From positions 1 to 48,337 of IMG/VR virus record IMGVR_UViG_3300042484_000872: DNA of 48,337 nt. One strand, 5' to 3'. The position numbers and the translations under genes were made by a program. Under the pieces are notes generated by a model. The model made no database searches. It was given only the letters and a program-made list of their open reading frames with translations, and was not told the origin of the DNA. The stretch is from a virus. Its lineage: Duplodnaviria > Heunggongvirae > Uroviricota > Caudoviricetes. Of the stretch, positions 432-43,374 are shown in pieces. Position 1 is the stretch's first letter, and the number at the start of each line of letters is the position of its first letter.

Positions 432-534
432 TGCACTTAACGCTGTGATAGAACAAAATATCAAAGACAACAAAAAAGATGTAATTAAGTATACATCTAA
501 AACAACAATGAAATATAACAAGTGGAAAAAATGA
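409..534 (+). CDS. Small hypothetical protein (41 aa, MRSIIYFDALNAV...KWKK), not in the ORF track
   Basis: Manual translation; its TGA (532-534) overlaps the PhoH ATG (531) as ATGA and it fills the intergenic gap. Confidence 0.45.
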   Translation: MRSIIYFDALNAVIEQNIKDNKKDVIKYTSKTTMKYNKWKK

Positions 535-1178
535 AAGAACCTAATCGAGTTAGAAAATCAGACATTAAATATGCTGTAGTCTTAAATGAAGAACAGAAGC
601 TTGCTAAACAACTAATTATTGATAATCAAATAGTAATTGTTACTGGTAGAGCAGGAAGTGGTAAGTCATTAGTGTGTGCACAATCAGCTTTGGATTTCTT
701 AATGAAGAAACAATGTGCTCATGTGTATGTTACTAGAGCTACAGTTGAAGTGGGAGAATCATTAGGGTTTTTACCAGGAAGTCTTGAAGATAAATTTAAT
801 CCTTATTTGGAAGCATTTCAAGAGAACTTAGAAAAATGTTATGATAAAATCAAAATTCAAGAATTGGTTAAGGACAAGAAAATACTTGCTTATCCTATTC
901 AGTTTATACGTGGTAAGACTATTGATGATGTTTTGGTGGTGGAAGAAGCACAAAACCTGTCAAAAGGGGAAATGCTCGCCATACTAACTAGACTTGGTAA
1001 AACAGGTAAGATTATTATCAATGGTGATAATGAACAAAAAGATATCAAAGAATCATACACAGGTCTATCATATGCAATAGATATTTCAAAAAAAATAGAA
1101 GGTATAGAATGGATCAAACTTAAAGCTAATCACAGAAGTGATCTTGTAGGTAAAATATTAGATAACGAATACAATTAA
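531..1178 (+). CDS. phoH: PhoH-family ATPase
   Basis: Walker A GRAGSGKS, LGFLPGSLEDKF, FIRGKT, VVEEAQN, TRLG and GDNEQKD motifs. ATG 531 preferred over the track's GTG 522. Confidence 0.93.
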   Translation: MKEPNRVRKSDIKYAVVLNEEQKLAKQLIIDNQIVIVTGRAGSGKSLVCAQSALDFLMKKQCAHVYVTRATVEVGESLGFLPGSLEDKFNPYLEAFQENLEKCYDKIKIQELVKDKKILAYPIQFIRGKTIDDVLVVEEAQNLSKGEMLAILTRLGKTGKIIINGDNEQKDIKESYTGLSYAIDISKKIEGIEWIKLKANHRSDLVGKILDNEYN

Positions 1179-1184
1179 GAAACA

Positions 1185-1412
1185 ATGATTGCTTATACAA
1201 TATTTAATATTCTTCCTTCTAAAAACATCTGGAAGTTAGAAAGTATAGTTAGAGAAGAGAAGATTGATTCTATAATTTCTAATGACACCATTGCAATTAT
1301 TTATCCAGAGTTAAATTCAATGTGGTATAACATAGACTTATTACGTTTGTGCTATCCTAAAGAAGAATGTAAAGAAATCATTAAAGCAATTAAAACAAAT
1401 AATATATTATGA
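1185..1412 (+). CDS. Hypothetical protein
   Basis: 75-aa ORF; ATGA overlap with the thioredoxin gene. Confidence 0.6.
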   Translation: MIAYTIFNILPSKNIWKLESIVREEKIDSIISNDTIAIIYPELNSMWYNIDLLRLCYPKEECKEIIKAIKTNNIL

Positions 1413-1669
1413 GTATTGAAGTATTAAAATTTAGTGCCTCCTGGTGTGGCCCTTGTAGAGTGTTAGCTAACACATTAAAAGATGTTGATGGAATAACAAA
1501 CATTGACATAGAGAAAGATCAAGAAACAGCTAGAAAGTATGGAATAAGAAGTGTTCCTACAATGGTGTTTTTAAAGAATGGTGAAGAGGTACATAGAATC
1601 TCTGGATCTATGCCATTAGAAACATACAAACAAATCTTGAATGAGATTAATGACAGTAAAGAACTTTAA
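1409..1669 (+). CDS. trxA: Thioredoxin
   Basis: FSASWCGPC active site; YGIRSVPTMVFLKNG cis-Pro loop. Confidence 0.93.
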   Translation: MSIEVLKFSASWCGPCRVLANTLKDVDGITNIDIEKDQETARKYGIRSVPTMVFLKNGEEVHRISGSMPLETYKQILNEINDSKEL

Positions 1670-2282: not shown

Positions 2283-2570
2283 ATGGCAAAATTATTAGGA
2301 AATCGTATCTATTTAGAGATACCAAAGAAAGAAGAAAGCAAACTTATTGTAGATGAAAATACAAAAGAAGCTTTAGAGAAAGAAATGATTAAGAAGATGT
2401 CTAAACTAACTATTCATAGTGTTGGTACAGCTAACATGGATGAATCATTAGTTGTAGGAGCTGTTGTTCTTGTAGATCCAGAAGCTTTATCAAAAGCTAG
2501 ATTGATTCCTTTATCAGAAGATGAAACTGTATTATTAGTTTCTCCTTTTGACATCATCCAAACCTGGTAA
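2283..2570 (+). CDS. GroES/Cpn10-like co-chaperonin
   Basis: KLLGNRIYL start, mobile-loop-like SKLIV, IHSVG, VVGAVVLV and C-terminal LLVSPFDII parallel the GroES pattern (KPLGDRVLV...VAVG...VGDKVL...DIL); 95 aa. Confidence 0.65.
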   Translation: MAKLLGNRIYLEIPKKEESKLIVDENTKEALEKEMIKKMSKLTIHSVGTANMDESLVVGAVVLVDPEALSKARLIPLSEDETVLLVSPFDIIQTW

Positions 2571-2571
2571 A

Positions 2572-3327
2572 ATGGACTATCCTTTCATATCTGCTAAATG
2601 CATCACTTATGGAAGAGTAGATACTCTTGAGGAAGCAATACAAAGCTTCCTCATTCAGGAGTATCCTGGTAAGAAAGAACTTATTATAGTTAATGATTAC
2701 CCTCTACAGAAGTTAGTGTATGATCATCCAGAAATAAAAATCTTTAATATGGATGAAACTTTCTCCACTATAGGAGAAAAAGAAAACTATGCTATAGAAA
2801 GATGTTCTGGAGAACTTATTGCTGTATGGGATGATGATGATGTAGCTTTGTCTAATCATCTATCTAATGTAGCTAAGTTTTGGAGACCAGATGCTAATCT
2901 TTTACACTGGCAAAATGGTGTGTTCTATAATGAGCCTAACATAACGCAATTAATGGCTCTTGGTAACTCAGGTATTGTATATAGCAAAAAAGCTTGGGAA
3001 GAAATTGGTAAGAGTCCAATAGAGAATGCAGGAGGAGATATGACATTAGTTGTAGCTATTCATAATTTAGGAAGAGATAAAGTGGTATTAGCTAATCCTC
3101 CTAATGAAGAATGTTCTTGGTTCTATATGTGGGGTGGTAGAGGATATCATCAATCAGGTATGGGAACAGACACTGCAGATAGACCTAATGTTATAAAAAG
3201 ACATAGCGATTATGTAGAAAATCTTAGAAGAAAAGGACAGATTCCTACAGGAGATGTTCATCTTATTCCTCATTGGAATAAGGATTATAAACAAATGTTA
3301 AAAGACTACATCAATGCAAATAAATAG
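2572..3327 (+). CDS. Glycosyltransferase, GT2 (GT-A fold)
   Basis: ISAKCITYGR...EAIQSFLIQEY...ELIIVND, N.AIERCSGELIAVWDDDD, GGD motifs; ATG 2572 directly follows the GroES-like stop. Confidence 0.88.
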   Translation: MDYPFISAKCITYGRVDTLEEAIQSFLIQEYPGKKELIIVNDYPLQKLVYDHPEIKIFNMDETFSTIGEKENYAIERCSGELIAVWDDDDVALSNHLSNVAKFWRPDANLLHWQNGVFYNEPNITQLMALGNSGIVYSKKAWEEIGKSPIENAGGDMTLVVAIHNLGRDKVVLANPPNEECSWFYMWGGRGYHQSGMGTDTADRPNVIKRHSDYVENLRRKGQIPTGDVHLIPHWNKDYKQMLKDYINANK

Positions 3328-3970
3328 TATATCAATAGATTCAACTAATTCTATTACAGAACTATGTCTTCTTGGAGTGAAATATCCAACAGATAAATCT
3401 CCATATAACACTGATAAGAATTTACATAAACATGCATATACATCTATATATAACCTATTATTCTCTAACATTAGATATAATAATCTACGTATAGGAGAAC
3501 TAGGTATATTAGAGAATCATTCTATGCTTTCCTGGAGAGAATTCTTTCCTAATTCTAAGTTATATGGATTTGAATGGTTTGATAGTAGATTAGATAAAGC
3601 TCTTGCTGATGGTATTGCAAATTGTGAATACACTAAGATGGATGTAACTAATCAATCATCTATTGAACAAGGATTATCTGCTGCAGGAAGTAATTTTGAT
3701 ATTCTAATGGATGATAGTACACATGTGTTTGAAGATCAAATTAAGTTTATTAATGTAGCATATAAACATTTAAAACCTGGAGGATTCCTAATCATAGAAG
3801 ATATATTTATTAGTGCTAAGGAAGAAGATTATTCAGAAGCAATAGATCATCTGTCAAGTTATTTCTCTTCTGCTACATTTATATTTGCTAATCATGATTT
3901 AAAACATTCTCCTGGATGGAACAATGATAAACTACTTGTATTACATAGAAACGATAAGCTATGTTCTTAA
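3314..3970 (+). CDS. Class I SAM-dependent methyltransferase, MycE/TylE-like sugar O-methyltransferase type
   Basis: TDK...HAY...Y, IGELGI, SMLSWREFFP, MDDSTH and LKPGGFLIIED motifs. Confidence 0.8.
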   Translation: MQINSISIDSTNSITELCLLGVKYPTDKSPYNTDKNLHKHAYTSIYNLLFSNIRYNNLRIGELGILENHSMLSWREFFPNSKLYGFEWFDSRLDKALADGIANCEYTKMDVTNQSSIEQGLSAAGSNFDILMDDSTHVFEDQIKFINVAYKHLKPGGFLIIEDIFISAKEEDYSEAIDHLSSYFSSATFIFANHDLKHSPGWNNDKLLVLHRNDKLCS

Positions 3971-4500
3971 ACATTATTACACCTTGCTCTAGACCAGAAA
4001 ACTTAGATGTTATATCTAAGAGTATAAATATTCCTAGAGATCAATATAGATGGATAGTGGTATTTGATTTATTAGAGAAACCAGGAAATATTCCTGATAA
4101 TTGTGAATGGTATGCTATCAAAGATGCTAATAGTACATCTGGCAATGCACAAAGAAACTTTGCTCTTGATTTAGTTACACATGGTCATATATATTTCAAT
4201 GATGATGATACTATTATGCAACCTAACTTATGGGATGAAATAAAAGATGAAGATGCTATAGATTTTATATCTTTTAAACAAGCAGAAAAAGATGGATCAT
4301 TAAGATTGGAAGGAAAGAATGTATCTGTAGGAAATATAGATAGTCATAACTTCATTGTCTCTGCAGAATGTGTAGGAAATACAAGATGGGTTCTTAATAG
4401 GTATGATGCTGATGGAGTATTTGCACGAGAGTGCTTTGAAAAAGCAAAAACTATATTGTATATATCCAAAATTCTTTCTGTATATAATTCTCTTAAATAA
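3961..4500 (+). CDS. Short GT2-like glycosyltransferase
   Basis: IITPCSRPENL, GNAQRNFAL, YFNDDD and YDADG motifs. Confidence 0.75.
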   Translation: MFLNIITPCSRPENLDVISKSINIPRDQYRWIVVFDLLEKPGNIPDNCEWYAIKDANSTSGNAQRNFALDLVTHGHIYFNDDDTIMQPNLWDEIKDEDAIDFISFKQAEKDGSLRLEGKNVSVGNIDSHNFIVSAECVGNTRWVLNRYDADGVFARECFEKAKTILYISKILSVYNSLK

Positions 4501-7075: not shown

Positions 7076-7786
7076 TTATTGTAACATTACCATTGGAACA
7101 GGCCCATTACTTAGAATTAGTAGCGTAGGATTTGCAGGAACTGGATCAGTATATAAATACACGGTATTAGAAAGAACAGTATATACGACACTAGCAGTTG
7201 CAGAATTACCTATTGACATTAAATTTCCAAGAGTTACACTTCTTATAGATTGAGTTGAATTTAAAATTGTTCCCATCCAATAAGTTTTACCAGCTTCAAA
7301 TGTATATACTGTGTTATATGTTTTTGTACCAAGAGTAGAGCAATCAAGATCTACAGATTCAATTAATAATCCATTTGGTCTACCGTTTACATCAGCATAA
7401 ACTAATATTTTTGCTAACGCTGAAGCAACACCAGTATTTACTTGAATTGAAACATTTGATATTGTTAAATCATTTGCTGGTATAAAAGGAGATAGGATCA
7501 TAAGATTTGAAACATACCCAGTACTACTTGGAGCGGTCCCTGTTAAAGCAACTGAATATTTTAATCCTGAAACTTGAGGAAGAAGCATATGAGCTCCACC
7601 TGTAGCAGTACTACTTACAGTGACATTACCTGTTGCTTGATCTACTGATACACCTGTTCCAGCTATAATACTAGTTACTCCTCCTCCTGAAGGAACTAAT
7701 GATGTAATTAATTCATCAAGGTTTAACCAATGATCAAATCCTTTTTTTCTTTTTTCCCAGAATCCTGGTTTTATAAATGTAGGCAT
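7076..7786 (-). CDS. Putative virion fibre/spike protein
   Basis: N-terminus shared with the collagen fibre; GVTSIIAGTGVSVDQATGNVTVSS fibre repeat; beta-rich C-terminal domain. Confidence 0.65.
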   Translation of the reverse strand: MPTFIKPGFWEKRKKGFDHWLNLDELITSLVPSGGGVTSIIAGTGVSVDQATGNVTVSSTATGGAHMLLPQVSGLKYSVALTGTAPSSTGYVSNLMILSPFIPANDLTISNVSIQVNTGVASALAKILVYADVNGRPNGLLIESVDLDCSTLGTKTYNTVYTFEAGKTYWMGTILNSTQSIRSVTLGNLMSIGNSATASVVYTVLSNTVYLYTDPVPANPTLLILSNGPVPMVMLQ

Positions 7787-7792
7787 AATGTT

Positions 7793-8077
7793 TTAATTTA
7801 AATTTATTTCAAATGTAATCACACTTGATGTTTTAATACTCTTACTCATATCAAGCCTTATTTGAAATATATTACAGAACTTCAATATCTCTTCTATGAG
7901 CATATTGTTATACTTAGGAAGACTTGTTGCTATTCTGAATCTATATGATTCTAAAGTTTTTGTTATCTCTAGACTACATAGTTCATCTACAGAAGAAATT
8001 ACACCCTCCAAATGTGCAAGAAAAACTTCATCGTTATCTTGCATCAATTTAGGAAAGTGTTTTCTGTTTATCTCCAT
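7793..8077 (-). CDS. Hypothetical protein
   Basis: 94 aa; TAATG-coupled to the upstream ferritin-like gene. Confidence 0.7.
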   Translation of the reverse strand: MEINRKHFPKLMQDNDEVFLAHLEGVISSVDELCSLEITKTLESYRFRIATSLPKYNNMLIEEILKFCNIFQIRLDMSKSIKTSSVITFEINLN

Positions 8078-8493
8078 TATGACAATGTTAATAGGTATTT
8101 TGTTTTAGCCGCTTCTCCAGATAAACTATCTGCAAGATTACATACATCGTGGAAAGAATTCTTCTCACCATATACTTTTAAATCTGATGCAAAAGACATA
8201 AGATCTGATACACATTGTTCAGGTTTGCAGTTGGTAAGAGGTTCAATCTTATAAATACCAGGTCTTTTTCCTGTATAGCCCATAATCTTTTCAACTACAC
8301 CATCTTTAAAATCATGTACATAATCATATAATCCACCAAGAGCTTGATGCTCTGCATAACTAGTAGTTTGCCAATGTAGCAGGTGTAATTGCTCATGAAA
8401 GTAAGTAAGCTTTGCAGCTATACTATCTAACGTTAAGCCTTCAGATGCTGATGATTTCATCATGTCATCTGGAAATAATGATTTTACTGCCAT
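8077..8493 (-). CDS. Ferritin-like/Dps-related protein (DUF5856-like)
   Basis: LHLLHWQTTSYAEHQALGGLYD...D..VE matches the Dps helix A/B pattern H(W)...H..L..LY...D...E; ends KYLLTL. Confidence 0.75.
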   Translation of the reverse strand: MAVKSLFPDDMMKSSASEGLTLDSIAAKLTYFHEQLHLLHWQTTSYAEHQALGGLYDYVHDFKDGVVEKIMGYTGKRPGIYKIEPLTNCKPEQCVSDLMSFASDLKVYGEKNSFHDVCNLADSLSGEAAKTKYLLTLS

Positions 8494-8498
8494 GATTA

Positions 8499-8768
8499 TT
8501 AAACTATTGTTGTAGTTGTAGTAGTCGTAGGAGCTACAGTTGTGGTTGTAGTTGTTGTAGGTGCTACAGTTGTACTAGTTGTAGTGGTAGGAGCAACTGT
8601 AGTAGTGGTTGTTGTTGTTGTATAATTACAACACTCCTTAGCATCTATCTCTTTCCAATTACCCACCTTCGGTTTAAATGCTTGTACAATTAAACTGCTT
8701 GATACTACACGTCCTGAACCATCAAAACGTACATAAGCTTTAAGCTTATTATTATTATTTCTAGCCAT
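8499..8768 (-). CDS. Small virion protein with mucin-like poly-Thr tail (LKAxVRxDG family, copy 1)
   Basis: LKAYVRFDGSGRVV...PKVGNWKEI...ECCNY followed by (T7-8 VAP)3 T7. Confidence 0.8.
   Translation of the reverse strand: MARNNNNKLKAYVRFDGSGRVVSSSLIVQAFKPKVGNWKEIDAKECCNYTTTTTTTTVAPTTTTSTTVAPTTTTTTTVAPTTTTTTTIV
8508..8621 (-). repeat. Thr-rich coding repeat, 10-aa unit TTTTTTTVAP, about 3.8 copies
   Basis: T8-VAP-TTTTSTT-VAP-T7-VAP-T7; mixed ACA/ACT/ACC/ACG codons. Confidence 0.9.
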
Positions 8769-8783
8769 GATTTATTTTTTAAA

Positions 8784-9203
8784 TTATACTGGACAAGGTC
8801 CTAATGATTCAATTGTTGGTGTAAATAAAACTGCAATTATTCCACCACCTGCAGCATTAGCATTTGCACAGAATTGTCTAAAATCTCCAGGATTAAGAAG
8901 TCCTTCATCTATTACTTCATTGTTACAATCTATATATGATAAATATCCTGGAGTAGCACCATTGTTAGTAACAAGATATTCAACACAATTTATACCTAGT
9001 GTTGTTGTTGTAGTAGTTGATGGTACTACAGTTGTGGTTGTAGTGGTGGTAGGAACGTAGTTACAGCATTCATATGCTAGAATTTCACGCCATTTACCAA
9101 CCTTTGGCTTATTTTTTCTAAGGACTAAGCTTCCTGCAACTATTCTGTGGCTACCATCGTAGCGAACAAAAGCCTTTAAAGGTCTTGAATTAATGCTTCC
9201 CAT
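8784..9203 (-). CDS. Small virion protein with poly-Thr linker and Cys-containing C-terminal domain (LKAxVRxDG family, copy 2)
   Basis: LKAFVRYDGSHRIV...PKVGKWREI...ECCNY-VP-T7-VVPS-T6, then a C.EY...SYIDC...FC module. Confidence 0.8.
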   Translation of the reverse strand: MGSINSRPLKAFVRYDGSHRIVAGSLVLRKNKPKVGKWREILAYECCNYVPTTTTTTTVVPSTTTTTTLGINCVEYLVTNNGATPGYLSYIDCNNEVIDEGLLNPGDFRQFCANANAAGGGIIAVLFTPTIESLGPCPV

Positions 9204-9220
9204 TTGTTTTAAATTTAGGG

Positions 9221-10237
9221 TTAATAGTTTAGGTTGTATTTTTGTTTTAGTTCATTTAATTTAGTTGCATAGAACCAAGTGCAATATTTTTTTGATTTTT
9301 CATCATTAAGGATAACATCTAAGTTAGGATCTTTTGTTGGATCTGATCCCATATGATATTTTCCTTTATAGAAAGCTGGGTAACCATTTCCTGTTTCAGA
9401 AACTATTCCTGCATTATGAAAGATTGTATGTGTGTCTAATTTGATAATTGGATCTGTAGCCCAAGCAAATGCTAATTCTGGAACCACTTTAGTTTCTCCA
9501 TCTCTTAACCATATGTTCCATAAAACTGCCCACATATCAGCACACCAACTTTGGTATCCAGAATTCTCATCTTTAAAGAACTCTCTATTTATCTTTTGTA
9601 AATATGTTCTTATAAGGATACAATCATTCATCACCTTGCTCCAGAAATCACCATCTATGTTCTTTAATAGATATTGTGCTCCTCCTGAATGATCATTATT
9701 AGCTTCACAGATTTCTCTGCTTATTCCTATAATACTAGCAAGTTCTCCAAGAATATCTCTGCTCTTGTATTCTTCTAGCTTTTCTGGTAACACTTGGTGT
9801 ATCTTACTATCAAAATACTTAGCGTTTATGTAGCTATTTGTATCAGATAGATAGTTGATGTCATCCTCTAAGAATTTATCTACATTAAAATCCTTCATGA
9901 ATAGAATATCACTATCACAATAGAAGATAGCTTTTTCTTTTAACTCTGGATGTTTTTTAAAATGTTTCCAAAGAACATATGGTCTTAGTACAGGAATGTA
10001 TATTCCTAATAACTGATTTAGGTTATCTTCATCTGCATAGTAATGAAACTCTGCTTCTGGATATAGATCTTCTATCTGTTTCCATTTATCTCTGTTCTCT
10101 CTCCCTTTAGGTGTAAAGATAACTGATATAGCTTTATCAGAATGTCCTATTTCTTTTAGACTCTCTAACCAAAGATTCACTTGCCATGTATAATAAATAT
10201 CGCTTGGACAAGCTTGTAAAAATTTTAAATCTTTCAT
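9221..10237 (-). CDS. GT-A fold glycosyltransferase; candidate protein O-glycosyltransferase
   Basis: DxD motif FYCDSDILF; YYTWQV, GGAQYLL, WCADMW and HNAG motifs. Confidence 0.72.
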   Translation of the reverse strand: MKDLKFLQACPSDIYYTWQVNLWLESLKEIGHSDKAISVIFTPKGRENRDKWKQIEDLYPEAEFHYYADEDNLNQLLGIYIPVLRPYVLWKHFKKHPELKEKAIFYCDSDILFMKDFNVDKFLEDDINYLSDTNSYINAKYFDSKIHQVLPEKLEEYKSRDILGELASIIGISREICEANNDHSGGAQYLLKNIDGDFWSKVMNDCILIRTYLQKINREFFKDENSGYQSWCADMWAVLWNIWLRDGETKVVPELAFAWATDPIIKLDTHTIFHNAGIVSETGNGYPAFYKGKYHMGSDPTKDPNLDVILNDEKSKKYCTWFYATKLNELKQKYNLNY

Positions 10238-10266
10238 AATGTAGTTGGTTTTAATTTTGGTTTTAT

Positions 10267-10653
10267 TTATTGATCAGCAGTTATTATTCCACCTGTTATT
10301 GTTAAGCAAACTCCATAACCTTTATTATAACTTCCATCAGGAAATGGTATTGTTGCTGCTTCATCTAACCATATTGCACATCCTATTTCTGGAAAGAAAA
10401 GTGCACAATTATATGTCATCCATACGTCAAAATAAACTTGTGGGTTTGGACATGCTTGAGGACATATTGCAGGACAATTAACAAATTTATTTGTACTATT
10501 AACTATAGTATCAGGTGATATAGTGCTAGTAGTAGTGGTTGTAGTAGGACATCCACCAGCTCTAACACAGATTAGTTGTTCTAACTGTTTAGAGATCTGC
10601 CAAAGAAGATTTGTTCTTGTACTTCCACCTATTTGTCTGTTTGGTATTGCCAT
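10267..10653 (-). CDS. AIPxRQIG-family small virion protein 3, with poly-Thr linker and Cys-rich head
   Basis: MAIPNRQIGG...NLLWQISKQLEQL.CV.AGGC-PTTTTTST. Confidence 0.8.
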   Translation of the reverse strand: MAIPNRQIGGSTRTNLLWQISKQLEQLICVRAGGCPTTTTTTSTISPDTIVNSTNKFVNCPAICPQACPNPQVYFDVWMTYNCALFFPEIGCAIWLDEAATIPFPDGSYNKGYGVCLTITGGIITADQ

Positions 10654-10663
10654 TGTTTATTTT

Positions 10664-11017
10664 TTATAATGCTGTTGTTGTAGTGGTAGTGGTGTGAGAA
10701 TCTATACAAGGTTGACACTCATTAAGAGTGGGCCATACATATGTAATAGTTCCAACATCTGCTGGGTTAGTTGTTTGATCAATTATAAACCAACATTCAG
10801 GTGTATCATTATTAACGATAGTACCTTCAGGTAATACACCTGTACCAGTGTAAGAAATAACATGGTATTCCATTCTCTCACATCCTGCTACATTATAATT
10901 AGTAGTTTGACCACAGCCACCAGCAGTTACACATGTCAGACGTTCTAATTGCTTAGATATCTGCCATAGTAAGTTAGCTTTAGTGCTCCATCCAATTTGT
11001 CGAGAAGGTATTGCCAT
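10664..11017 (-). CDS. AIPxRQIG-family small virion protein 2, with C-terminal poly-Thr
   Basis: MAIPSRQIGW...NLLWQISKQLERLTCVTAGGCG; ends HTTTTTTTAL. Confidence 0.8.
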   Translation of the reverse strand: MAIPSRQIGWSTKANLLWQISKQLERLTCVTAGGCGQTTNYNVAGCERMEYHVISYTGTGVLPEGTIVNNDTPECWFIIDQTTNPADVGTITYVWPTLNECQPCIDSHTTTTTTTAL

Positions 11018-11021
11018 AATA

Positions 11022-11492
11022 TTATAAAACTGTATAGTTATAAACTTTTATATCCACTCTAATATTTACTTGTTCTGCACTAATAACTTCTGGACAAGTT
11101 AAATATATTGCAGTTCCAGCATTTCTTACCAACCATGGAACATATATATCTTCACCATCTCCAGCAGAATAACAAAAACCTATCAATCCATAACTATCAA
11201 CTATAATATCTAAAAGTTCTATAACTATACTACCTAAATATGGACTACTACTAAAATTAACATTACCTAGCGTATTTTCAAATTCAGATTGAACAGTAAC
11301 TACACCCTCTATATCTTGACTTAATATAGCTGTATATACTTTATAAGAAGGTAAAATGGTTGTAGTGGTGGTAGTGGTAATAGCACCACAGCCACCAGCT
11401 GTTACGCATGTTAATCTCTCTAATTGCTTAGAGATTTGCCATAAGAGATTATCTTCTGTTCCCCAGCCTATTTGTCTTGATGGTATAGCCAT
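11022..11492 (-). CDS. AIPxRQIG-family small virion protein 1, with poly-Thr linker
   Basis: MAIPSRQIGW...NLLWQISKQLERLTCVTAGGCGAI-T7, then a YKVYTAILSQ...ENTLG beta domain. Confidence 0.8.
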   Translation of the reverse strand: MAIPSRQIGWGTEDNLLWQISKQLERLTCVTAGGCGAITTTTTTTILPSYKVYTAILSQDIEGVVTVQSEFENTLGNVNFSSSPYLGSIVIELLDIIVDSYGLIGFCYSAGDGEDIYVPWLVRNAGTAIYLTCPEVISAEQVNIRVDIKVYNYTVL

Positions 11493-11510: not shown

Positions 11511-12560
11511 TTAATAAATTTTTGTTAATGTAAAGTTTCTTGAAAGAATTGAGTTACCTGCATTAGTTGTATTCCATTGAACAGTGACTACAAGTGTATT
11601 ATCTATTGTTGTATTAAATGTCGTATTATTAACTGTGCTTAATACATATCCTTCAAAATTAGTTCCTGAATTTTTAATATAAGAAAACAATCCTCCTGAT
11701 GATATTGATGCAACACCTGCTCCTCCTAATGTTCTTATTGTAAAATATAAATTTATTAACCAAGACTTATTAGTTGTAGCATCCATAGAAATTATACCTG
11801 TATCAGCTAAAAGCACTCCAGCTAATGTTCTAACACGCACATGTAATGTTGCTGAACCTAAACAAGTGATTACACCATCTAATGCACAAGTGAAACTATC
11901 TCCTATTTGAAATCCATTAGCAGGAACAGTTAATGTACCTACACCTGGTCCTATTATTGTTGTTTCTACAATTGTAGCTGTTACAGGTCCTCCATCACCA
12001 GTTTGTGCAAATAAACCTGTAAGTCCTGAAGGACCTTGAGGACCTGTGTCTCCTTGTATTCCTTGAACACCTTGTAAACCTTGGTTACCTTGCAGTCCTT
12101 GTTCCCCTTGTATTCCCTGTGGACCAGTAGGTCCTTGATCTCCTTGTGGTCCTTTTATATCACCAGCATCAAACCAAGCTGTACCATTCCAAGTCATTAA
12201 AGACCCATCAGATAATAAAATCCATGCATCACCAATATTAGCTCCAGGTAAAGAGCCTGCACCAGCATTAAATGCTGCTAAGTCTGCATAAGAACCAAGA
12301 ATAGTTACAGAGTTACCTGCAGTTCCTTGAGGTCCTTGATCTCCAGTTACACCTTGTTCACCTTGTATTCCTTGAATTCCTTGATCTCCTTCTATACCTT
12401 GTTCACCTTGTACACCTTGTGGACCTTCAGGACCTATTGGACCAGGAACACCTGGACCAGCAATATCTGCTATAAGTTTATCAAGATTAAGCCAACCTTT
12501 GTACCCTAAACAAGGTTTACATAATTGATCCCAAAATCCTGCTTTAATAAATGTTGCCAT
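11511..12560 (-). CDS. Collagen-like fibre protein
   Basis: Two Gly-X-Y tracts; ATG 12560 (MATFIKAGFW) preferred because the track's TTG 12581 lies inside the promoter -7 box. Confidence 0.88.
   Translation of the reverse strand: MATFIKAGFWDQLCKPCLGYKGWLNLDKLIADIAGPGVPGPIGPEGPQGVQGEQGIEGDQGIQGIQGEQGVTGDQGPQGTAGNSVTILGSYADLAAFNAGAGSLPGANIGDAWILLSDGSLMTWNGTAWFDAGDIKGPQGDQGPTGPQGIQGEQGLQGNQGLQGVQGIQGDTGPQGPSGLTGLFAQTGDGGPVTATIVETTIIGPGVGTLTVPANGFQIGDSFTCALDGVITCLGSATLHVRVRTLAGVLLADTGIISMDATTNKSWLINLYFTIRTLGGAGVASISSGGLFSYIKNSGTNFEGYVLSTVNNTTFNTTIDNTLVVTVQWNTTNAGNSILSRNFTLTKIY
12018..12152 (-). repeat. Collagen Gly-X-Y tract 2 (15 triplets)
   Basis: GPQGDQGPTGPQGIQ...GPSGLT. Confidence 0.92.
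12309..12452 (-). repeat. Collagen Gly-X-Y tract 1 (16 triplets)
   Basis: GVPGPIGPEGPQ...GTAGNS. Confidence 0.92.
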
Positions 12561-12578
12561 GATTAATGTTGTAAGTGT

Positions 12579-12607
12579 CAAAGATATAAGTTTTATTTTA
12601 TATACAA
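12579..12607 (-). promoter_or_regulatory. Bacteroidota housekeeping-sigma promoter
   Basis: On the - strand: TTG, 18-nt spacer, TATCTTTG (perfect TAnnTTTG), 19 nt upstream of ATG 12560. Confidence 0.7.
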
Positions 12608-16272: not shown

Positions 16273-19200
16273 TTATCTCCTTGATTGAGTTGTAACTTTT
16301 ACCCCTTGTTCTTTAGCTAATTCTGGATATAAATAAGGAAGTATCTCACTTTGAATTTGTGAAGCTACAGGTATCATATTAAAAAAATATTTAGTTGGAT
16401 GAGATTTATCAATTAACTCTTGATCGTCTGTAGCCTCTCCATACATTTCTCTAGCAGTGTAATACAATACATCTGAAGCTTTTGTTAATAAATTCAAAGA
16501 TGGTAATACAGATCCTTTAGTCATACTTTCAAATGATAGAGGATTGTAATAGAATGTGATCTCATCAGAAACTTTATTAACAAGTTTAGCATACCATTTA
16601 TATCTATTTCTTTCTTCTTCTGTAGCATCATCTGGTGGCACAGAAGCTTTTGTCATAAGAATTAAAGACATTACACCAAATAATAGATATAATTCTTTCA
16701 TTTGATTAGCTATTTGTTCTCTTATAAGATCTTGGAATTCTTCTTCTGTTATTTCAAGAGTTTGTCCAGTCTTTTTAAAATAGTCTAATCTTTTAGCTTC
16801 AAGTATTTCATTAAGCATTTGTAGTCCTTCATCACTACCTGTTATGATAGCTCTCATTGATGATATGTTTTTAAATCCTACAGCTTGCCAAGTTTTAAAA
16901 AATGCTCTAGTTCTACCATACTCCCATTGGTTAAGTTCAACGTTCTTATTGATACCTAATGTATGTTCAGAAACTAATTTAGGTATCCAGTTTTTAAACA
17001 TCATGAATGATGTAAAGATAGCATCTCTTCTATATCCAGCTTTATTATCTTCATTCATCTGACCATTAAGCTTTCTACCATATTCAATAATAGATGTACG
17101 AAACTTTGCAAGTTCTATATCACTCACTCCTGGAATTACCATTTCGTCATTTTCAATAGTTGCTATCTTATCTAATGAAGAAGATTCTTTTAATTCTTTA
17201 GCTCTCTCATCAAATGATTTTTCTAAAGCTTTTCTATCACTTTCAGACATTCCTTTTCTAGTAATTCTATCTTGTTGTTTTAAGTATTGTCTTATATTAA
17301 CAATTTTACCATCTACCACTATTGAGTTATCAATAATACTTAATGCATTAGATAGTTGTAACTTTCTTTCAGGAAAAGAGTTAGTTGACATCATTACATC
17401 AGTAAATGACCAAGTAGATAGATATTTAATCAATCCTTGTTCTTTAGCCATTTTTCTTCTTTCTTCTGTAGCTATATCTTCATTTAATGGTACAAAAAGA
17501 TTCAATAGCCCTCTTTGTATTGTATTTAGATTGTTTCCTGTAACAATCTTAAGATTATTCTTTTGAAATTCTGAGAATGAATATAATTGTCCTGAATTAA
17601 CAAAAGATTGAAAATTATATCCCATAAAGTTAGCTATAGATATAAGAGGCTTAAGACCTACAGCAATAGATCTAGTTAATGTATCAGCATTGCTTAAAAG
17701 TTTTTTAGCATTAATTGCTTTAGCTTGCTTATCTTCTTCATCTTTGCCTAGTTTTTCTCCAAGAGCAGTTACACCAATATTTCCTATAGATCCAAGATCT
17801 TGTCCTAGTTTATATAGTCCATCATCAATTATAGTTTCTAATATAGCTGCATTTTTATTATCTTGTTCATTAACACTAAGCTCACCATCTGTAAACTGAA
17901 CTTGTCCATTTTCAAATATAAGACTTCCTTTAGCTTTTTCAACAGCATGTAATGTAAGAAGAGTATTCTCTAAGTTCTTAGAACTTTCATATTCTAATAA
18001 AGATTGAACCCATAATGCTCCAATCTTATTAAGATCAGTAGATAGCTGATTTGCAGTTTTATCTGTCTTAGTAAAATATTTAGGTATGGCTTTTTTAACT
18101 TTACCAGTTTCAGGATCAGTCTTAGACATTCCCTGAGTTTCATTTATTCTAGTTTGGTAGAAATCTGTCCATAAAGATTCTTTTGATTGAGCTAGTATAT
18201 CATCAGTTTGTGCAAACTTTTGAAGAATAGTAGCTTCCATTAATGGAAAGAATGAAGACCCTTGTTTATCAAGGTATCCCATTTGTTTAGCTTTAGTATT
18301 CAAATCAGTAAAGAAATTCCACACATCAAGAGCAGCTTTACTCTTACTCATTTGTTCATATTCTTTAGATAGATGTCCTTCTTCAATTAATGTTTCTTTA
18401 AACAATTGTTTGAATTTATAATCATCATATCCATCAAAGTTCTCACTATGAATATCTAAAGAATCTTTTAACTTAATTATTTTATATGAACGTTGAAATT
18501 GATCTTCTTCTGGATCAGATGCAAATGTAGTTTTATTTAATTCTTCTGTTCCTTTTTCAATAGCAACTTTAGATAATTTATCATATTGATCAACATTCAT
18601 ATTATCTAAGAAGAAAGCTTTATCTTTTTTCTCTCTAGCATCTACCATTTCTTTCCAGAATTCAGGATCAATTTTCTTAATAAGATTTAATCCTGTCTCA
18701 GACATTGTTCCAATTAAATCAAATGCTCTAACTCCTTTAGCCGAAGCTTCTTTCTCTAATGGAATAAGTATTTTCTCATACTGTTTTAGTTTTCTAGCAA
18801 GCTCTATATTAACAAGACTCTTTGCATTCATAATTAAATTAGATGCAAGTTTGATGATCTTAGCAGAAAGTTTTGACCCCTCTAAGAATGTCTTAGACAT
18901 GCCATCAATTTCTTTCTCAGCATTCAATATTGTTGTCTTAGTTTCATCTGTTGTTACTCCTTCTTTAAGACCTAAGTGTACAGCATATTGATTTTGTAAC
19001 TCAGAAATCTCATTTAACATCCTAGATGTCATAGAAGATATATGTTCTAACTCTTTCAATACTTTTTTATTTTCATCAGTCATTCCTTCTCTTGTATATT
19101 GAGAAAGAAATACCTGGTCCATAGTTGTAAACTTTGAAGCACTTACACCATATTCAATTAAATCTCCAAGTCGTTTATCTAATTCTTCTTTACTTATAGC

Positions 19201-21030
19201 ATCATAATCTACTTTAGCAAAGTCATCTAATGCATTTCTTGCATTAGTTAAAAAAGATTTACCTACATTTACAAGAGGTTCAAAATTTAACTTAACATGT
19301 AAGTTACGAATAGCAGCACTTAACTTATTAATTTCCAAGATTTTACCATATCTATCTTCAGAAGAAACAGGTTTTTTATATAATTTTTCCCACTGTTCCC
19401 TTAATGATTTAATAAGAGAATCAACTTTTAGATTACCTGTAGATTCAGAATTAATAGGAACTGGAAGTAAGTATAGATTAGTTTCCTCTAATGAATTAAG
19501 TTTACCTATCTCCATAGATGTAGGAGCAGAGAATCCACTTTCAGGTTGTCCTTCAACAACATAGTTGTAGTTCATTACAATAGGAATCATTCTAGCTTTT
19601 CTTAATTGAGCAGGTTGTAATCCATAGTTATAAAGTATCTTAGTATACTCTCCCATCTGAGCTTTCCAATCCTTCTGTTTAGCCCAATTGATATCTTCAT
19701 CTCTACTTTTATTAATAGAAGTAGTCTTCCAGTCAAGTATATCAACTTTTACATCTGGTGTACCATCTGCTTTCTCAGCAGGTTCAATAGCCATAAAGTC
19801 AATAGCAGATGCAAGTTTACCTTTTACATTTTGATTCACCACCATTGCTTCTAATATGAAACGTGTGCCAGGTTTATAAGAGTTAATTAATTCTGTTGAA
19901 AAATTTTGTAGTCTCTTTTGAACTTTAGGATCAAGTTTAGTTGATACAGCATTAGTTAACGCATCATCTCTTTTATATCCATCTTTATCAATAAGATTAT
20001 TAGTTATAAAGTTATATATGTAATCATGTATTTCTGTACCCCAATCTTTCTTTTGATCATCTAAGAATTTCTGAAGAGGAGTTCTATCAGGCATTGTTGT
20101 ACCTTTTTTAAGTTCAGCTGTAACAGAAGGAATCTGTTCAGCAAGACCATCAAGTGTGTAATGTCTTTTAACTATCTCTTTTCCAGTAGCATCATATACA
20201 GCATCATTTCTTTCTAATCTATTATTAAAATCTGATACAATATCAAAGATTTTATCTACAGCAGTATTTTTAACTTGGTAATATATATCACCACCAACAA
20301 TATCAGAAACAACTCCACCAACATTTGCACTCAGCACTTTACCAGCAGCTTGTTCAAATATATCTATGTTTGTTTTTGCATACACTCCTTTGATAAAATC
20401 AAGAATAGTGTTCCACCAGTTCTGAACCATTGATCTATTATTCTCTTGCATTAGCTCAGGGAACTGTGTAGAGCCCTCAGATTGATTGATAATAAGTTCA
20501 GCTATAAGTTTATCTACAGCTTCTTTTTTTATCTTTCTAATGTCTGGTTTACCATTAGATAATTGATATGCTTTCTTTCCTTTATATGCTTTAAGTGTAT
20601 CGTCATAGATCTTAAATCTATCTATCTTAGAAATCATTGCAGTGACAAGCTTTGGATTAGTCTGCTCAAGAATAGCTGTTGCTACATGGACAATCTCTTC
20701 TGTTAAAGCATAGTTTTCCATTCCTTGGGCAATAGCTATTGCTCCTTTAACAAGATCAGCTAGTCCATTAATTCCTTTAGTGCTTATTTCAGGATTACCT
20801 TTTGTATATTCAGCTAAAGATATAATGTCAATATCCATTTGTTTAGCCGCATTCTTCATTACAGCCACTGTCTCATCAGAAGCTTTAGAAACAGGCATTT
20901 CGGTTTCAGTATATTCTGATTGAGGAACTTCTCCTTCATGTAAATCCCACAAGTAATGAGCCATGTTTTCACCTCTGGAAGCTACTAATGACTTCCACTC
21001 TTCTGAACTAGTATTTATACAACTTATCAT
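16273..21030 (-). CDS. Large virion cargo/ejection protein with a PD-(D/E)xK nuclease domain and a zincin-like motif
   Basis: GTEIH...E...IDFM...ILDWKT...Q...Y; EEIVH; hydrophobic C-terminal helices; follows the RNAP gene. Confidence 0.75.
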   Translation of the reverse strand: MISCINTSSEEWKSLVASRGENMAHYLWDLHEGEVPQSEYTETEMPVSKASDETVAVMKNAAKQMDIDIISLAEYTKGNPEISTKGINGLADLVKGAIAIAQGMENYALTEEIVHVATAILEQTNPKLVTAMISKIDRFKIYDDTLKAYKGKKAYQLSNGKPDIRKIKKEAVDKLIAELIINQSEGSTQFPELMQENNRSMVQNWWNTILDFIKGVYAKTNIDIFEQAAGKVLSANVGGVVSDIVGGDIYYQVKNTAVDKIFDIVSDFNNRLERNDAVYDATGKEIVKRHYTLDGLAEQIPSVTAELKKGTTMPDRTPLQKFLDDQKKDWGTEIHDYIYNFITNNLIDKDGYKRDDALTNAVSTKLDPKVQKRLQNFSTELINSYKPGTRFILEAMVVNQNVKGKLASAIDFMAIEPAEKADGTPDVKVDILDWKTTSINKSRDEDINWAKQKDWKAQMGEYTKILYNYGLQPAQLRKARMIPIVMNYNYVVEGQPESGFSAPTSMEIGKLNSLEETNLYLLPVPINSESTGNLKVDSLIKSLREQWEKLYKKPVSSEDRYGKILEINKLSAAIRNLHVKLNFEPLVNVGKSFLTNARNALDDFAKVDYDAISKEELDKRLGDLIEYGVSASKFTTMDQVFLSQYTREGMTDENKKVLKELEHISSMTSRMLNEISELQNQYAVHLGLKEGVTTDETKTTILNAEKEIDGMSKTFLEGSKLSAKIIKLASNLIMNAKSLVNIELARKLKQYEKILIPLEKEASAKGVRAFDLIGTMSETGLNLIKKIDPEFWKEMVDAREKKDKAFFLDNMNVDQYDKLSKVAIEKGTEELNKTTFASDPEEDQFQRSYKIIKLKDSLDIHSENFDGYDDYKFKQLFKETLIEEGHLSKEYEQMSKSKAALDVWNFFTDLNTKAKQMGYLDKQGSSFFPLMEATILQKFAQTDDILAQSKESLWTDFYQTRINETQGMSKTDPETGKVKKAIPKYFTKTDKTANQLSTDLNKIGALWVQSLLEYESSKNLENTLLTLHAVEKAKGSLIFENGQVQFTDGELSVNEQDNKNAAILETIIDDGLYKLGQDLGSIGNIGVTALGEKLGKDEEDKQAKAINAKKLLSNADTLTRSIAVGLKPLISIANFMGYNFQSFVNSGQLYSFSEFQKNNLKIVTGNNLNTIQRGLLNLFVPLNEDIATEERRKMAKEQGLIKYLSTWSFTDVMMSTNSFPERKLQLSNALSIIDNSIVVDGKIVNIRQYLKQQDRITRKGMSESDRKALEKSFDERAKELKESSSLDKIATIENDEMVIPGVSDIELAKFRTSIIEYGRKLNGQMNEDNKAGYRRDAIFTSFMMFKNWIPKLVSEHTLGINKNVELNQWEYGRTRAFFKTWQAVGFKNISSMRAIITGSDEGLQMLNEILEAKRLDYFKKTGQTLEITEEEFQDLIREQIANQMKELYLLFGVMSLILMTKASVPPDDATEEERNRYKWYAKLVNKVSDEITFYYNPLSFESMTKGSVLPSLNLLTKASDVLYYTAREMYGEATDDQELIDKSHPTKYFFNMIPVASQIQSEILPYLYPELAKEQGVKVTTQSRR

Positions 21031-21031
21031 A

Positions 21032-24000
21032 TTAACAAATTTCTTTTCTTATTTCTTTTAATATCTCACCAACTTCACTTGGTGTATATCCCATTTTAAT
21101 TAGCATGCCTAATTTAATATCATCTATGTTGTAAGCATTACCATCTTTTAATATTCTTTCAATAGTAGATTTTTCTCTAGTCTCAGCTGCAGGAGCTTCT
21201 GCTTCTTCTTGTTGAATTATAGCAACATTTGGTGTTACTCCTGTAAGAGCTAACTCAATTGCACTATCTTCCACTTCATCTGGACTTAATTGTTGTTTTT
21301 CAGCATTTTCTGTATATTGAACTTTTATAAATCCATTATCTAATACAGAAGCTCTTGATACAGTTGATAGAGGATCTAGTGGGAATGTTTTACCATAAAA
21401 CTCTTGAGCTTTAAATGAATCACCCCAAGCATTCACAGCTTTGTATACATAATTGAAATAGAACTTACCTTGGTATTCAGATTCTTGAACTAAAGGAACT
21501 CTTTTTCCATCTTCATTTACCGTGTACACTTTCTTAAACAATCCTTTTTCAACATGAGATGTATCTCCTGTTCTTCTAGCTTTAATTCTTTGAGCTTTAG
21601 TAATCTTTCCTTCTGAACTATATACAACAAAATCATTAGAACCTTCTCTTGAAAACATAGAGAATACAATCATTGGAGGAAGTTCGCCACTAAGCATTTT
21701 CTTTTCTAACTTCTTACTTAAGAATTGTTTCTCTGGATAATACCAACTATTAGGATTCTTTTTACTTTGTTGTAAGCGTCCTTTTTTAAATGTTGTTATA
21801 TTAGCATTATTCCAATTGGATCTTTCCATTATATCTAACTGTCTAAAGTCTGCTAAGTTAGGTATATTTTCTAGATTGGACAATGTTTCATTATAGAATT
21901 CTCTAAAATCTTCATAAGGAAGAAGATTAGTAAAAGCTATTGGAGAGTTTGTAAGACCAGATTGTATTACAGCTAGTCTAACAAGCTTACCATACAAGTC
22001 TTTATTCTCATCACCAAGTTTCTCTTTCAACTCTTCAAATCCATATATGATTAAGTTTTGATCATACACTTTACCATCTCTTCCTTTAATAGAAAGATTA
22101 TCTACTTGAGGAATAATCATATTCATCATCTTTCTACTTTCTTTAGGACTATATCCTAATTTAACTAGTAAAGGAATATTTATGTTTTCTCTTTTGTATG
22201 TATTACCATCTCTCAACTCATACTCATCTAATACAATCTTCTTACCGCTTTCCAACTGGATTGATTTAAGAATTAAGTTATTAAATAAAGGATGGGTTTT
22301 ATCTTTCAACACTTTATCTCTGAATTCAATAATTTCTCTAGCAGCACTTTTTTCTGTTGCTGTTCCTAATAGAATTTTCTTAACAGAATTATTTAATTTT
22401 CTATTATTCTGTACAGCCCAATCAAAAAGATCATTCACTGCTTTCTGAGAGACTTTGATGAAGTCTCTATCATTTAATCCTATGTAAGGACGTAGTACTT
22501 CTTGCATCACCTTTCTGATATTCTTTCTATCAGATATAAGAATTTCAGCAAATGCATCACGCACACCATATATAACATTAGCAAGTGGACCAACAAAAGA
22601 GTTATCAAGAATACTATCTACTGCTGGTACAACTTTATTCTCATTATCTATAGAAGAGTATATTGTATTTCTAGCTTTAGCAAGTTGTTCTTGTTTCTTG
22701 AATACTAAATATGGATCATTGATTGTAGCAGTGTCAAAGTTAGAACCTTGTGTTACTTGGAATAAATGATTAGCCATCATAGCATATTTCAAGAACTCAT
22801 CTAATATGAATTGTTGTTGAGCTAGTTCTGTAGGATTCATATTTTCAGCAGACTTGCCAATCATATCACCTAATTCTTTCTCACTAGGAATAGATGTTAC
22901 TTCTACATCTTCTCCACCTATGTAATCATATTTTACATTGTCAACAAACTTATCAATAAATAACCATGAGTATCCATTGTTTTGAATTGTCTTCAAGTAC
23001 TCACGTATAACTGGTTGGTTCATAAAATATCCAACAGTGTTTATAGGTACACCAAGTTTAACTAATAACATCCATGTAGAAGCTACGTTTGGAGAAGCTC
23101 CCATCTCCATAATCCAAGGACCTTTAGAGATATCCACATATCCATCTATGAACTGTCCTATTGTATCAGATATAAATGTTTTGTTGTCAGCACTTTTAAT
23201 TTTAGATAAAGTGGCACGGTTTCTTCCATTAACCATAATTGAGTTATACTCTTGGAATTTAATTTCAGCATCACCTAACCATTTTTTATCTACTGGATCA
23301 ATTACTGTATCTAACTTATCTGTATCAATAAATATAGGACTACGTTGATTTTGAGCATGGTTAGTTTGATTCACCGCAGCAATACCAATAGCATACTTAC
23401 CTGTAACAAATGCATGTCTAAGACTAGTCATAAATCCTCTACTCAACATATTACCTACCGCACCATAGTCAATCTCAGTCTTACCAAGTTTATTGTTTAT
23501 ATCTTTTGATAATCCTTTAAGATCATCAGCAGAGTTAGGTTTAATTAAGTTATCAAAGTTTAAGTCATTAGATATTAATGCTTGCAATGAAGTGATATAT
23601 TCATTCTCTAATGATTGTCTGTAAAGATCATTAATTACATCTTCTCTCTGTAAAGAATACTCTTCAGGGAACATACTTTCAAACAATCTATCTTCAACTG
23701 ATCCTTGTGGAAGAGCATCTTTCTTAGATTTTAAATATTCATTGAATTCTCCATTATCATATAGCTCACCAAATTTATCAACAGCTTCCTGTCCAGTTCC
23801 CAAATAAGGAACTTGCTTAGGTTTACCATCCTTGCTAGGATAGATGTTTTTCAAATAGATTGATAACTTATCAATATCAAAATCCGATCCTGCTTTCTTA
23901 ACAAGTTCTGAAGGAATAACTACTGAATCTTTATATCCTTGTGGAAGGAACTTACCTATTTCGAATACATCAATAGAGTTTTGTTTCTGTGTAGGAATAC

Positions 24001-42852: not shown

Positions 42853-43374
42853 TTATAATGTTACGTGTTTCCAATTTCTATTTTTTATAACATGTCCAAT
42901 TAATCCAAAGCTTACATTGTATTCTTCTGCTAATTTTTGTAAAGTATATTTTCTTGGTATATACTTTTCTCGTATCTCAACTACTTGTTCTTCAGTTAGT
43001 TTAGAAAGATAATGTTTACTACCTTTAGATTTATTACCTCTACCATCTTTTATCATTTGTTGAGAGTTCATTTTTAATGTTCCCCATTGTAAATTATCTG
43101 CTTTGTTATTTCTTCTGTTATTATCTAAATGCATTACAATTGGATAATTTTCAGGATTTTCACAAAATACTTCAGCTACAAGTCTATGTATTCTCTTCAT
43201 CCATTTTTTATTATGTATATGAACTTCTACAAAATTATAATTAATATCTGCAGGAGAGTCAATGTATTCTCTTAATATTTTACCTTTATTTCTAATACCT
43301 GCAGATCTAATCTTACCAAGATTACTTGCTTCATATAAATTATTTAAACTAGGTATTGGTTTCCAATTTTCCAT
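42853..43374 (-). mobile_element. Free-standing NUMOD4-HNH homing endonuclease with C-terminal HTH
   Basis: WKPIP..NNLYEASNLGKIRS (NUMOD4); HRLVAEVF...HLDNNRRNNKADNLQW (HNH_3); SKLTEEQVVEIR...LAEEYNVS (HTH). Confidence 0.9.

Follow-up and report, generated by a model that had tools for sequence, protein, structure and literature searches.

Why would a phage carry a glycosyltransferase gene in the middle of a row of small genes whose products contain runs of threonine? The question was raised by positions 8499-11492 of a 48,337-nucleotide stretch of phage DNA (the window; bases 1-48337 of the 112,337-bp virus record IMGVR_UViG_3300042484_000872), in which the gene for a 338-amino-acid (aa) protein is flanked by five genes for poly-threonine (poly-Thr) proteins. 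An original prediction, made from the letters of the DNA, had proposed that the enzyme glycosylates these tracts to build a mucin-like coat. After comparison with relatives and structural modelling, we consider it likely that the phage encodes O-glycosylation of poly-Thr stalks and tails on its own virion proteins. The fold of the enzyme, its conserved catalytic motif, the domain architecture of the poly-Thr proteins, the co-occurrence of the two and the gene fusions of enzyme homologues are the observations on which this reading was built.

Organization of the gene block

Six minus-strand open reading frames (ORFs) were present at the predicted coordinates, with three AIPxRQIG proteins encoded upstream of the enzyme and two LKAxVRxDG proteins downstream (T7 denotes seven consecutive threonines, and so on):

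11022-11492, minus strand: 156-aa fibre-like protein, AIPSRQIG...AGGCGAI, then T7 (residues 39-45)
10664-11017, minus strand: 117-aa paralogue, AIPxRQIG N-terminal module (N-module), Cys-containing domain, C-terminal T7 tail
10267-10653, minus strand: 128-aa paralogue, AIPNRQIG...AGGCP, T6ST (residues 37-44), Cys-rich distal domain
9221-10237, minus strand: 338-aa glycosyltransferase of GT-A fold (by model), phrog_4417 family, DSD at residues 108-110
8784-9203, minus strand: 139-aa protein, 48-aa basic N-module LKAFVRYDG...ECCNYVP, T7 and ST6, Cys-containing distal module of ~70 aa
8499-8768, minus strand: 89-aa "stalk-only" paralogue, LKAYVRFDG...ECCNY, four Thr runs with VAP spacers, without a distal domain

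Spacing between the genes is 4-29 nucleotides, no terminator-like site was found within the six-gene block, and the block lies between collagen-like and other fibre genes; the six genes may be co-transcribed. Thr runs of 6-8 residues were confirmed in all five flanking proteins, together with the motifs AGGC and ECCNY. The pattern (ACN)5AC occurred at 18 sites in the window, all on the minus (coding) strand, against an expectation of 0.00 from 100 dinucleotide-preserving shuffles. Genome-wide, in ORFs of at least 80 aa, homopolymer runs of at least five residues numbered 25 for Thr and at most two for every other residue. Within the runs the Thr codons vary, and ACC, a rare codon, is used more than elsewhere (12 of 59 in runs versus 5% genome-wide); since the tracts are also kept across homologues, the earlier view that they are selected at the protein level held up. 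Replication slippage was rejected as the origin of the tracts on the mixed codons and on a run length sharply fixed at 7-8.

Fold, family and invariant residues of the 338-aa enzyme

Sequence libraries alone gave no glycosyltransferase assignment. A Pfam scan returned no family even at an expectation value (E) ≤1, the Glyco_transf_8 profile (PF01501) included; a PDB sequence search returned chance-level matches only, none below E 0.2; and the single PHROG matched was phrog_4417, annotated "unknown function" (E 9.6e-55, residues 5-320 on profile positions 2-286 of 293). The family is large, the clustered protein collection holding 2818 relatives and, at 50% identity, 764 representatives; the whole genome record has one copy. 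In an alignment of 61 diverse members (sequences of 30-50% identity), Y80, D108, D110, Y136, F257, H274 and K291 were invariant. No signal peptide or membrane segment was visible in the 338-aa sequence.

The AlphaFold2 (AF2) model (predicted local distance difference test score, pLDDT, 96.8) is a single Rossmann-like alpha/beta/alpha domain in which the DSD motif, D108-S-D110, directly follows strand 103-107. Foldseek matched 261 PDB chains at E ≤0.001. VIA Z scores were 12.6-14.5 for many GT-A enzymes over 210-250 residues, the best solved structures including glycogenin (Z 14.5, root-mean-square deviation 3.6, 226 residues), LgtC (14.3), Skp1 alpha-galactosyltransferase (13.9), GlyE of the serine-rich-repeat pathway (13.1) and the UGGT catalytic domain. 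The top AFDB/Swiss-Prot model was the plant peptidyl-serine alpha-galactosyltransferase SGT1 (E 9.4e-11, template modelling score, TM, 0.61), followed among reviewed proteins by the hydroxyproline O-arabinosyltransferases HPAT1-3 and then by glycogenins. The model and its fold matches, with the DSD motif, thus confirmed the earlier label "glycosyltransferase": the 338-aa protein is, by structure prediction, a GT-A fold enzyme of the GT8-like neighbourhood, the GT8 likeness being structural and without a sequence-profile match. Because longer homologues are fused to GT6, GT2 or methyltransferase domains, or to a PF11397 GlcNAc-transferase with O-FucT, the enzyme domain can be placed in glycan synthesis, and we propose, on the predicted fold, that it is a polypeptide Thr O-glycosyltransferase.

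Among the reviewed proteins, SGT1/SERGT1 (GT96) and HPAT/RDN (GT95) match the whole enzyme best (E 9.4e-11 to 5e-7, TM 0.55-0.61), and they start glycans on repetitive, extended structural proteins rich in hydroxy amino acids (extensins). Identity is only 11-14%, and the plant enzymes reside in Golgi membranes and act on Ser or hydroxyproline, whereas the phage enzyme is predicted to be soluble and its proposed acceptor is Thr. The best solved matches, glycogenin, LgtC and GlyE (GT8, retaining GT-A; Z 13-14.5), share the DxD and a later His with the phage enzyme, which differs in having some 80 additional residues and extra helices. Of the three, glycogenin adds sugar to the side chain of a protein, and GlyE acts on serine-rich repeat adhesins.

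Co-occurrence of the enzyme and poly-Thr proteins

Co-occurrence and synteny were examined on related contigs and in other phages. At least one same-strand ORF with T5 or longer was found within 3 kb of the enzyme gene in 78 of 80 close relatives, the two exceptions being cut by contig ends. An enzyme homologue stood directly beside the gene for a Thr-rich virion protein in ten independent lineages (phages of Chryseobacterium, Enterococcus (two), Lactobacillus, Levilactobacillus, Staphylococcus, Arcanobacterium and Clostridium, and two metagenomic lineages). The homologue in Enterococcus phage phiFL1A comes after a major tail protein with a long threonine/serine (T/S) tail, and the capsid protein of this phage has T5-KP-T5-KP-T7 at its end. 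The homologue is preceded in Lactobacillus phage Semele by two small proteins whose tails are Thr repeats, and in Chryseobacterium phage MA9V-3 by two proteins with long internal T/S runs. Thr tails were found on tail-tube, protease or scaffold-region and small head-proximal proteins of Staphylococcus DH5, Enterococcus EfKM29, Arcanobacterium TPWB06 and Clostridium phiCTP1. Levilactobacillus phage ENFP1, without a T5 run, was an apparent exception, yet the two genes directly upstream of its homologue end in (TTVAP)n.

The V-A-P spacer recurs across unrelated hosts ((TTVAP)n in ENFP1, T5-VAP-T4 in phiCTP1, T7-VAP-T7 in the 89-aa protein of the window), and this recurrence hints at a shared acceptor syntax. 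In Semele the enzyme profile match (record positions 76986-77870) spans one TAG and one TAA, though an intact coding sequence is annotated; the match probably overruns the gene ends.

Sites of the Thr-codon pattern (ACN)6 were counted in five enzyme-positive and five enzyme-negative genomes, four of the latter being crAss-like or related. The reversed-pattern control gave 0 in all genomes.

Enzyme-positive: MA9V-3, 15; phiFL1A, 5; Semele, 10; DH5, 14; phiCTP1, 2
Enzyme-negative: Lbo-JY46, 0; csAssE-Sib, 0; Cellulophaga phi17:2, 0; crAss001, 0; Cellulophaga phi14:2, 0

This pairing was set against a different explanation, in which the poly-Thr tracts are unmodified flexible linkers and the enzyme acts on host envelope polysaccharide (for superinfection exclusion or receptor masking) or on phage DNA. 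Phage glycosyltransferases are indeed best known for DNA and O-antigen modification, as is generally held and as PMC12619734 also has it. The enzyme gene here, however, lies within the late fibre operon, and in the ten lineages its homologues directly follow a Thr-rich virion gene; none of the five enzyme-negative genomes has such tracts; and the nearest folds are those of protein-directed enzymes. An envelope substrate would leave the strict pairing with Thr tracts unexplained, and the enzyme has no visible membrane segment or signal peptide. As for DNA, no thymidylate-synthase or dCMP-hydroxymethylase homologue was found in the record, which is ~62% complete, and the gene context is structural. 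We therefore regard unmodified linkers with another enzyme substrate as unlikely.

Architecture of the poly-Thr proteins

By sequence, the five flanking proteins form two families of like architecture: a conserved N-module, Thr runs (mostly T7, in many cases spaced by x-A-P) and a variable distal domain. The AIPxRQIG family has 867 relatives. All but one of the 120 best-listed carry a T/S run of 7-16 at about residues 36-52, after a 35-residue module, and the C-terminal domains are highly diverse; one relative, P0346, has the domain of the 117-aa protein with a T run after AGGC. In the LKAxVRxDG family (590 relatives), Thr runs follow ECCN in 120 of the 120 best-listed, typically as T7 units with three-residue spacers ending in Pro, and some members consist of N-module and repeats alone. 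In a set of 1708 distinct ORFs taken from 80 related loci, 182 of ~300 runs were seven residues long and 53 were eight, and the commonest flanks were VAP and AAP. Pfam gave no family for four of the five small proteins and a weak Mucin match (PF01456), below the cut-off, for the 89-aa protein; an Atlas feature search matched the 156-aa protein to unnamed viral clusters only and the 139-aa protein to nothing.

The AF2 model of the 156-aa protein consists of a helix (13-30), a low-confidence Thr tract and a beta-sandwich head (50-155). In BFVD the head matched the ends of a Flavobacterium phage structural protein (E 9e-5) and of an Olleya phage tail fibre (E 2e-4). Foldseek against the PDB gave no match to the model at E ≤0.001, and the sub-threshold rows, which serve as leads only, were TNF-like heads, reovirus sigma1 heads and the TP901-1 receptor-binding protein. 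A homotrimer model scored 0.91, versus 0.14 for the best control, with at least 82% of contacts shared between runs and partner pLDDT of at least 79. The 0.91 mark was reached by 20 of 30 solved same-chain pairs and by 1 of 23 single chains in a calibration that used two copies and own alignments, whereas the 156-aa job used three copies and a separately made alignment. The modelling supports, and does not prove, trimerization of the 156-aa protein through helix and head. We read the small proteins, on the predicted structure, as short fibres in which a Thr stalk joins an anchor to a head, and the N-module probably anchors or oligomerizes the protein.

Short conserved N-modules followed by hypervariable C-terminal parts with paired Cys would also be expected of secreted or released glycopeptides resembling glycocins or ribosomally synthesized and post-translationally modified peptides, with the enzyme tailoring them, and a thioredoxin gene lies nearby (1409-1669). 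That the small Cys/Thr-rich proteins are such peptides is nevertheless very improbable: in place of short cores, their distal parts have folded domains 60-200 aa in size; one head resembles a tail-fibre tip and is predicted to trimerize; like poly-Thr tags occur on capsid, tail-tube and muzzle proteins, here and in other phages; and no leader peptidase or exporter was noticed in the region, although no systematic search was made.

Among the AIPxRQIG proteins the lone exception, P0282, carries the head of the 156-aa protein on a collagen-fibre N-module, with a Pro-rich linker replacing poly-Thr. This substitution makes a linker role alone plausible and so counts in favour of unmodified tracts. 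A collagen fibre, itself without poly-Thr, is encoded directly upstream of the block:

11511-12581, minus strand: 356-aa collagen-repeat tail-fibre protein (Collagen PF01391, E 2.7e-16; tail-fibre PHROGs)

It shares the N-module M(A/P)TFIK(A/P)GFW...WLNLD(E/K)LI with a 236-aa protein (7076-7786, minus strand). Given P0282 and this shared N-module, sequence comparison indicates that N-modules, linkers (collagen, Pro-rich or poly-Thr) and heads are shuffled among the fibre genes.

Further poly-Thr proteins and identity of the phage

The original prediction had counted five poly-Thr proteins. All five exist, and the count proved too low, with one more in the window and five beyond it:

44259-48337, minus strand (ORF continuing to genome position 50111): C-terminal part of a 1950-aa muzzle-like virion protein, homologue of the csAssE-Sib muzzle protein
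Genome 53708-60672, second cluster: proteins of 97, 459, 304 and 334 aa with multiple T/S runs, those of 459 and 304 aa with lectin-like Fib_succ_major domains
Second cluster, near the capsid gene: 397-aa protein with a C-terminal Thr-rich tail

T8 forms the tail of the 1950-aa protein (codons at 44266-44288), and the homologous enzyme-negative genomes contain no poly-Thr tract. The second cluster lies 5-12 kb past the window end and ~45 kb from the enzyme gene; its five proteins have multiple T/S runs and are very Cys-rich. At least six more poly-Thr virion proteins, beyond the five flanking ones, are thus predicted as acceptors in this genome.

A 520-aa ORF beyond the window (genome 62750-64312) encodes a crAss-type major capsid protein (PF23898 Crass_capsid, E 1.8e-27), and the homologues of the 1950-aa ORF (3' end at 44259) are Cellulophaga phage structural proteins and a csAssE-Sib protein annotated "muzzle protein". 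On these two matches the earlier guess was right, and the genome, from an uncultured marine phage, is crAss-like (Crassvirales). CheckV estimated the record to be ~62% complete. No match of the region to isolated phages was found by megablast, and tblastn with the 519-aa and 397-aa proteins gave no match.

Other genes of the window were noted. Two giant minus-strand ORFs typical of crAss-like phages, 21032-34939 (4635 aa) and 16273-21030 (1585 aa), are probable virion RNA polymerase or cargo proteins. An HNH endonuclease gene (42853-43374, minus strand) lies between large virion-protein genes, and a DUF5856 protein (8077-8493, minus strand; phrog_858, annotated as a starvation-inducible Dps-like regulator) is encoded directly downstream of the poly-Thr genes.

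A second glycosyltransferase and a methyltransferase-like gene

Some 6 kb from the enzyme, a small cassette on the plus strand may act on the same glycan:

2548-3327, plus strand: 259-aa GT2-family glycosyltransferase (PF00535, E 1e-9), candidate glycan-extending enzyme
3314-3970, plus strand: 218-aa methyltransferase-like protein (Methyltransf_24, E 3.7e-5, just under the Pfam cut-off), candidate sugar O-methyltransferase
3961-4500, plus strand: 179-aa protein with faint GT43 similarity only (E 0.008, below cut-off)

In P0215 the GT2, methyltransferase and phrog_4417 domains are naturally fused; the GT2 of the window shares 29% identity (E 4e-10) with the GT2 domain of this fusion, and the contigs encoding P0215 carry directly upstream a protein with long T/S runs. 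Enzyme homologues elsewhere are fused to Methyltransf_24 domains. In pairwise comparison, the methyltransferase-like protein of the window was not significantly similar to the methyltransferase portions of the fusions P0142 and P0176, and its link to the fusions is at the level of the Pfam family. Fifty related loci reached far enough to be scored: 41 have the GT2 (at 27-98% identity), 11 the methyltransferase and 8 the 179-aa gene, while the 338-aa enzyme was 66-96% identical in related loci. This distribution fits a constant initiating enzyme with a variable elaboration set. The GT2 and methyltransferase-like cassette probably elaborates the glycan, to judge from gene comparison; membership of the 179-aa protein in the system is doubtful.

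A thioredoxin (1409-1669, plus strand; PF00085, E 1e-15) and a PhoH-like ATPase (522-1178, plus strand; E 1e-48) are encoded just upstream of the cassette. There might be a connection between the thioredoxin and the abundance of Cys-rich domains in the fibres.

With a GT2 encoded 6 kb away, the division of labour could be the reverse: the tracts may be glycosylated with the first sugar coming from a host enzyme or the GT2, and the 338-aa enzyme would then extend it, in the manner of GlyE in the streptococcal serine-rich-repeat pathway. GlyE and other glycan-extending GT8 enzymes are among its structural neighbours, and fusions with other glycosyltransferase domains exist. The distribution of the genes speaks otherwise. 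No GT2 was found in five other phage genomes that are positive for the enzyme and for poly-Thr, which marks the 338-aa family as the constant partner of the tracts, and among the close relatives the GT2 is missing in 9 of 50 and highly divergent in others, compared with 66-96% identity for the enzyme. The top neighbours SGT1, HPAT and glycogenin, moreover, act directly on amino-acid side chains. An extending role is accordingly improbable, and we favour the 338-aa protein as the enzyme that adds the first sugar.

Relation to known glycosylation systems

The only experimentally established cases of phage virion glycosylation that we know of are in mycobacteriophages, where Freeman and coworkers reportedly described it in 2023 (Cell Host Microbe 31:1216). 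The enzyme gene here is, as in those systems, associated with structural genes, lying inside the fibre operon, and a methyltransferase-like gene is likewise present. Host phylum and phage order (here Crassvirales) differ. In the mycobacteriophages Che8, Corndog and Myrna, phage glycosyltransferases act on the phages' own structural proteins, according to PMC12619734, which cites that work. The profile of the present enzyme family found nothing in the Che8 genome at E ≤1, and no Mycobacterium phage was among the 77 records positive for the enzyme by tblastn. The Che8 capsid and tail-tube proteins are without poly-Thr, whereas the tags in the window are mostly internal stalks of fibre-like proteins. 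By these comparisons, the present system is not the same as the mycobacteriophage one, having another enzyme family and a distinctive poly-Thr tag.

Mucins, serine-rich repeat adhesins of Gram-positive bacteria and cellulase linkers likewise have tracts of hydroxy amino acids between folded domains, with Pro-containing spacers, and in them glycosylation stiffens and protects the tract. Unlike such tracts, those of the phage are near-pure Thr, quantized at ~7 and virus-encoded, and their modification would be cytoplasmic. O-glycosylated Ser/Thr-rich disordered regions are also known from streptococci (PMC12041528). A literature search found no publication on the enzyme family or on poly-Thr glycosylation in phages; the review PMC9863714 covers host glycosylation only.

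Proposed mechanism

In the mechanism that we propose, the 338-aa protein would be a soluble, cytoplasmic, metal-dependent GT-A enzyme made together with the late tail and fibre genes. It would move sugar from a nucleotide-sugar donor onto the Thr hydroxyls of poly-Thr tags on virion proteins; we infer acceptor, donor, glycan, co-transcription and virion location from the comparisons above. The tags, usually of seven Thr and often separated by x-A-P, would form the stalk between N-module and variable head of mini-fibres and, in the muzzle-like protein, a C-terminal tail. With dense O-glycosylation they would become rods that are stiff and extended, hydrophilic and resistant to proteases, like those of mucins, extensins and cellulase linkers. 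The rods would keep the heads at a distance from the particle, which they could also shield or make sticky. The GT2 and methyltransferase-like genes (2548-3970) would extend and methylate the first sugar, and their variation among relatives may yield different glycan types.

Several points weigh against O-glycosylation of the tracts. The support is comparative and structural, coming from genes and predicted models. The comparison of presence and absence is small (5 versus 5 genomes), and it does not pair enzyme-positive genomes with enzyme-negative sister taxa. The enzyme family was found within the fetched stretch, which was short, in only 4 of 80 arbitrary viral T8 loci; poly-Thr tracts therefore exist without the enzyme nearby, as the unmodified-linker explanation would have it, although in the present genome too a second poly-Thr cluster lies ~45 kb from the enzyme gene. 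The remaining loci must be explained by other enzymes, by an enzyme gene placed farther away or by tracts that stay unmodified. Gene context and fold are what place both small-protein families on the virion. Finally, with the record ~62% complete, further relevant genes may be missing. Set against these, the fold of the enzyme, the ten lineages and the five-versus-five genome comparison still make glycosylation of the Thr tracts by this enzyme probable. The original prediction of a coat is refined in one respect: the gene products suggest stalks and tails of fibre-type appendages more than a continuous coat.

A wider reading, to which we give slightly less than an even chance, is that one soluble, so far unclassified GT-A family, nearest in structure to the plant extensin glycosyltransferases, reads a portable tag of ~T7 (often with x-A-P after it), and that phages of Bacteroidota, Bacillota and Actinomycetota use it to glycosylate any capsid, tail-tube, muzzle or fibre-stalk protein so tagged, with a swappable GT2/methyltransferase cassette giving glycan "serotypes" in the present group.

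Significance

If true, this would be a system of enzyme and tag different from that of the mycobacteriophages and much more widespread, at work in crAss-like phages and many phages that infect Enterococcus, Lactobacillus, Staphylococcus and Clostridium. Such an enzyme, soluble and able to glycosylate a tag of seven residues in the cytoplasm of bacteria, would also offer a simple means of glycoprotein production. For the phages themselves, glycosylated stalks and tails would bear on how particles survive proteases and stick to mucus or polysaccharide, on how they evade antibodies in phage therapy, and on how receptor-binding heads are presented.

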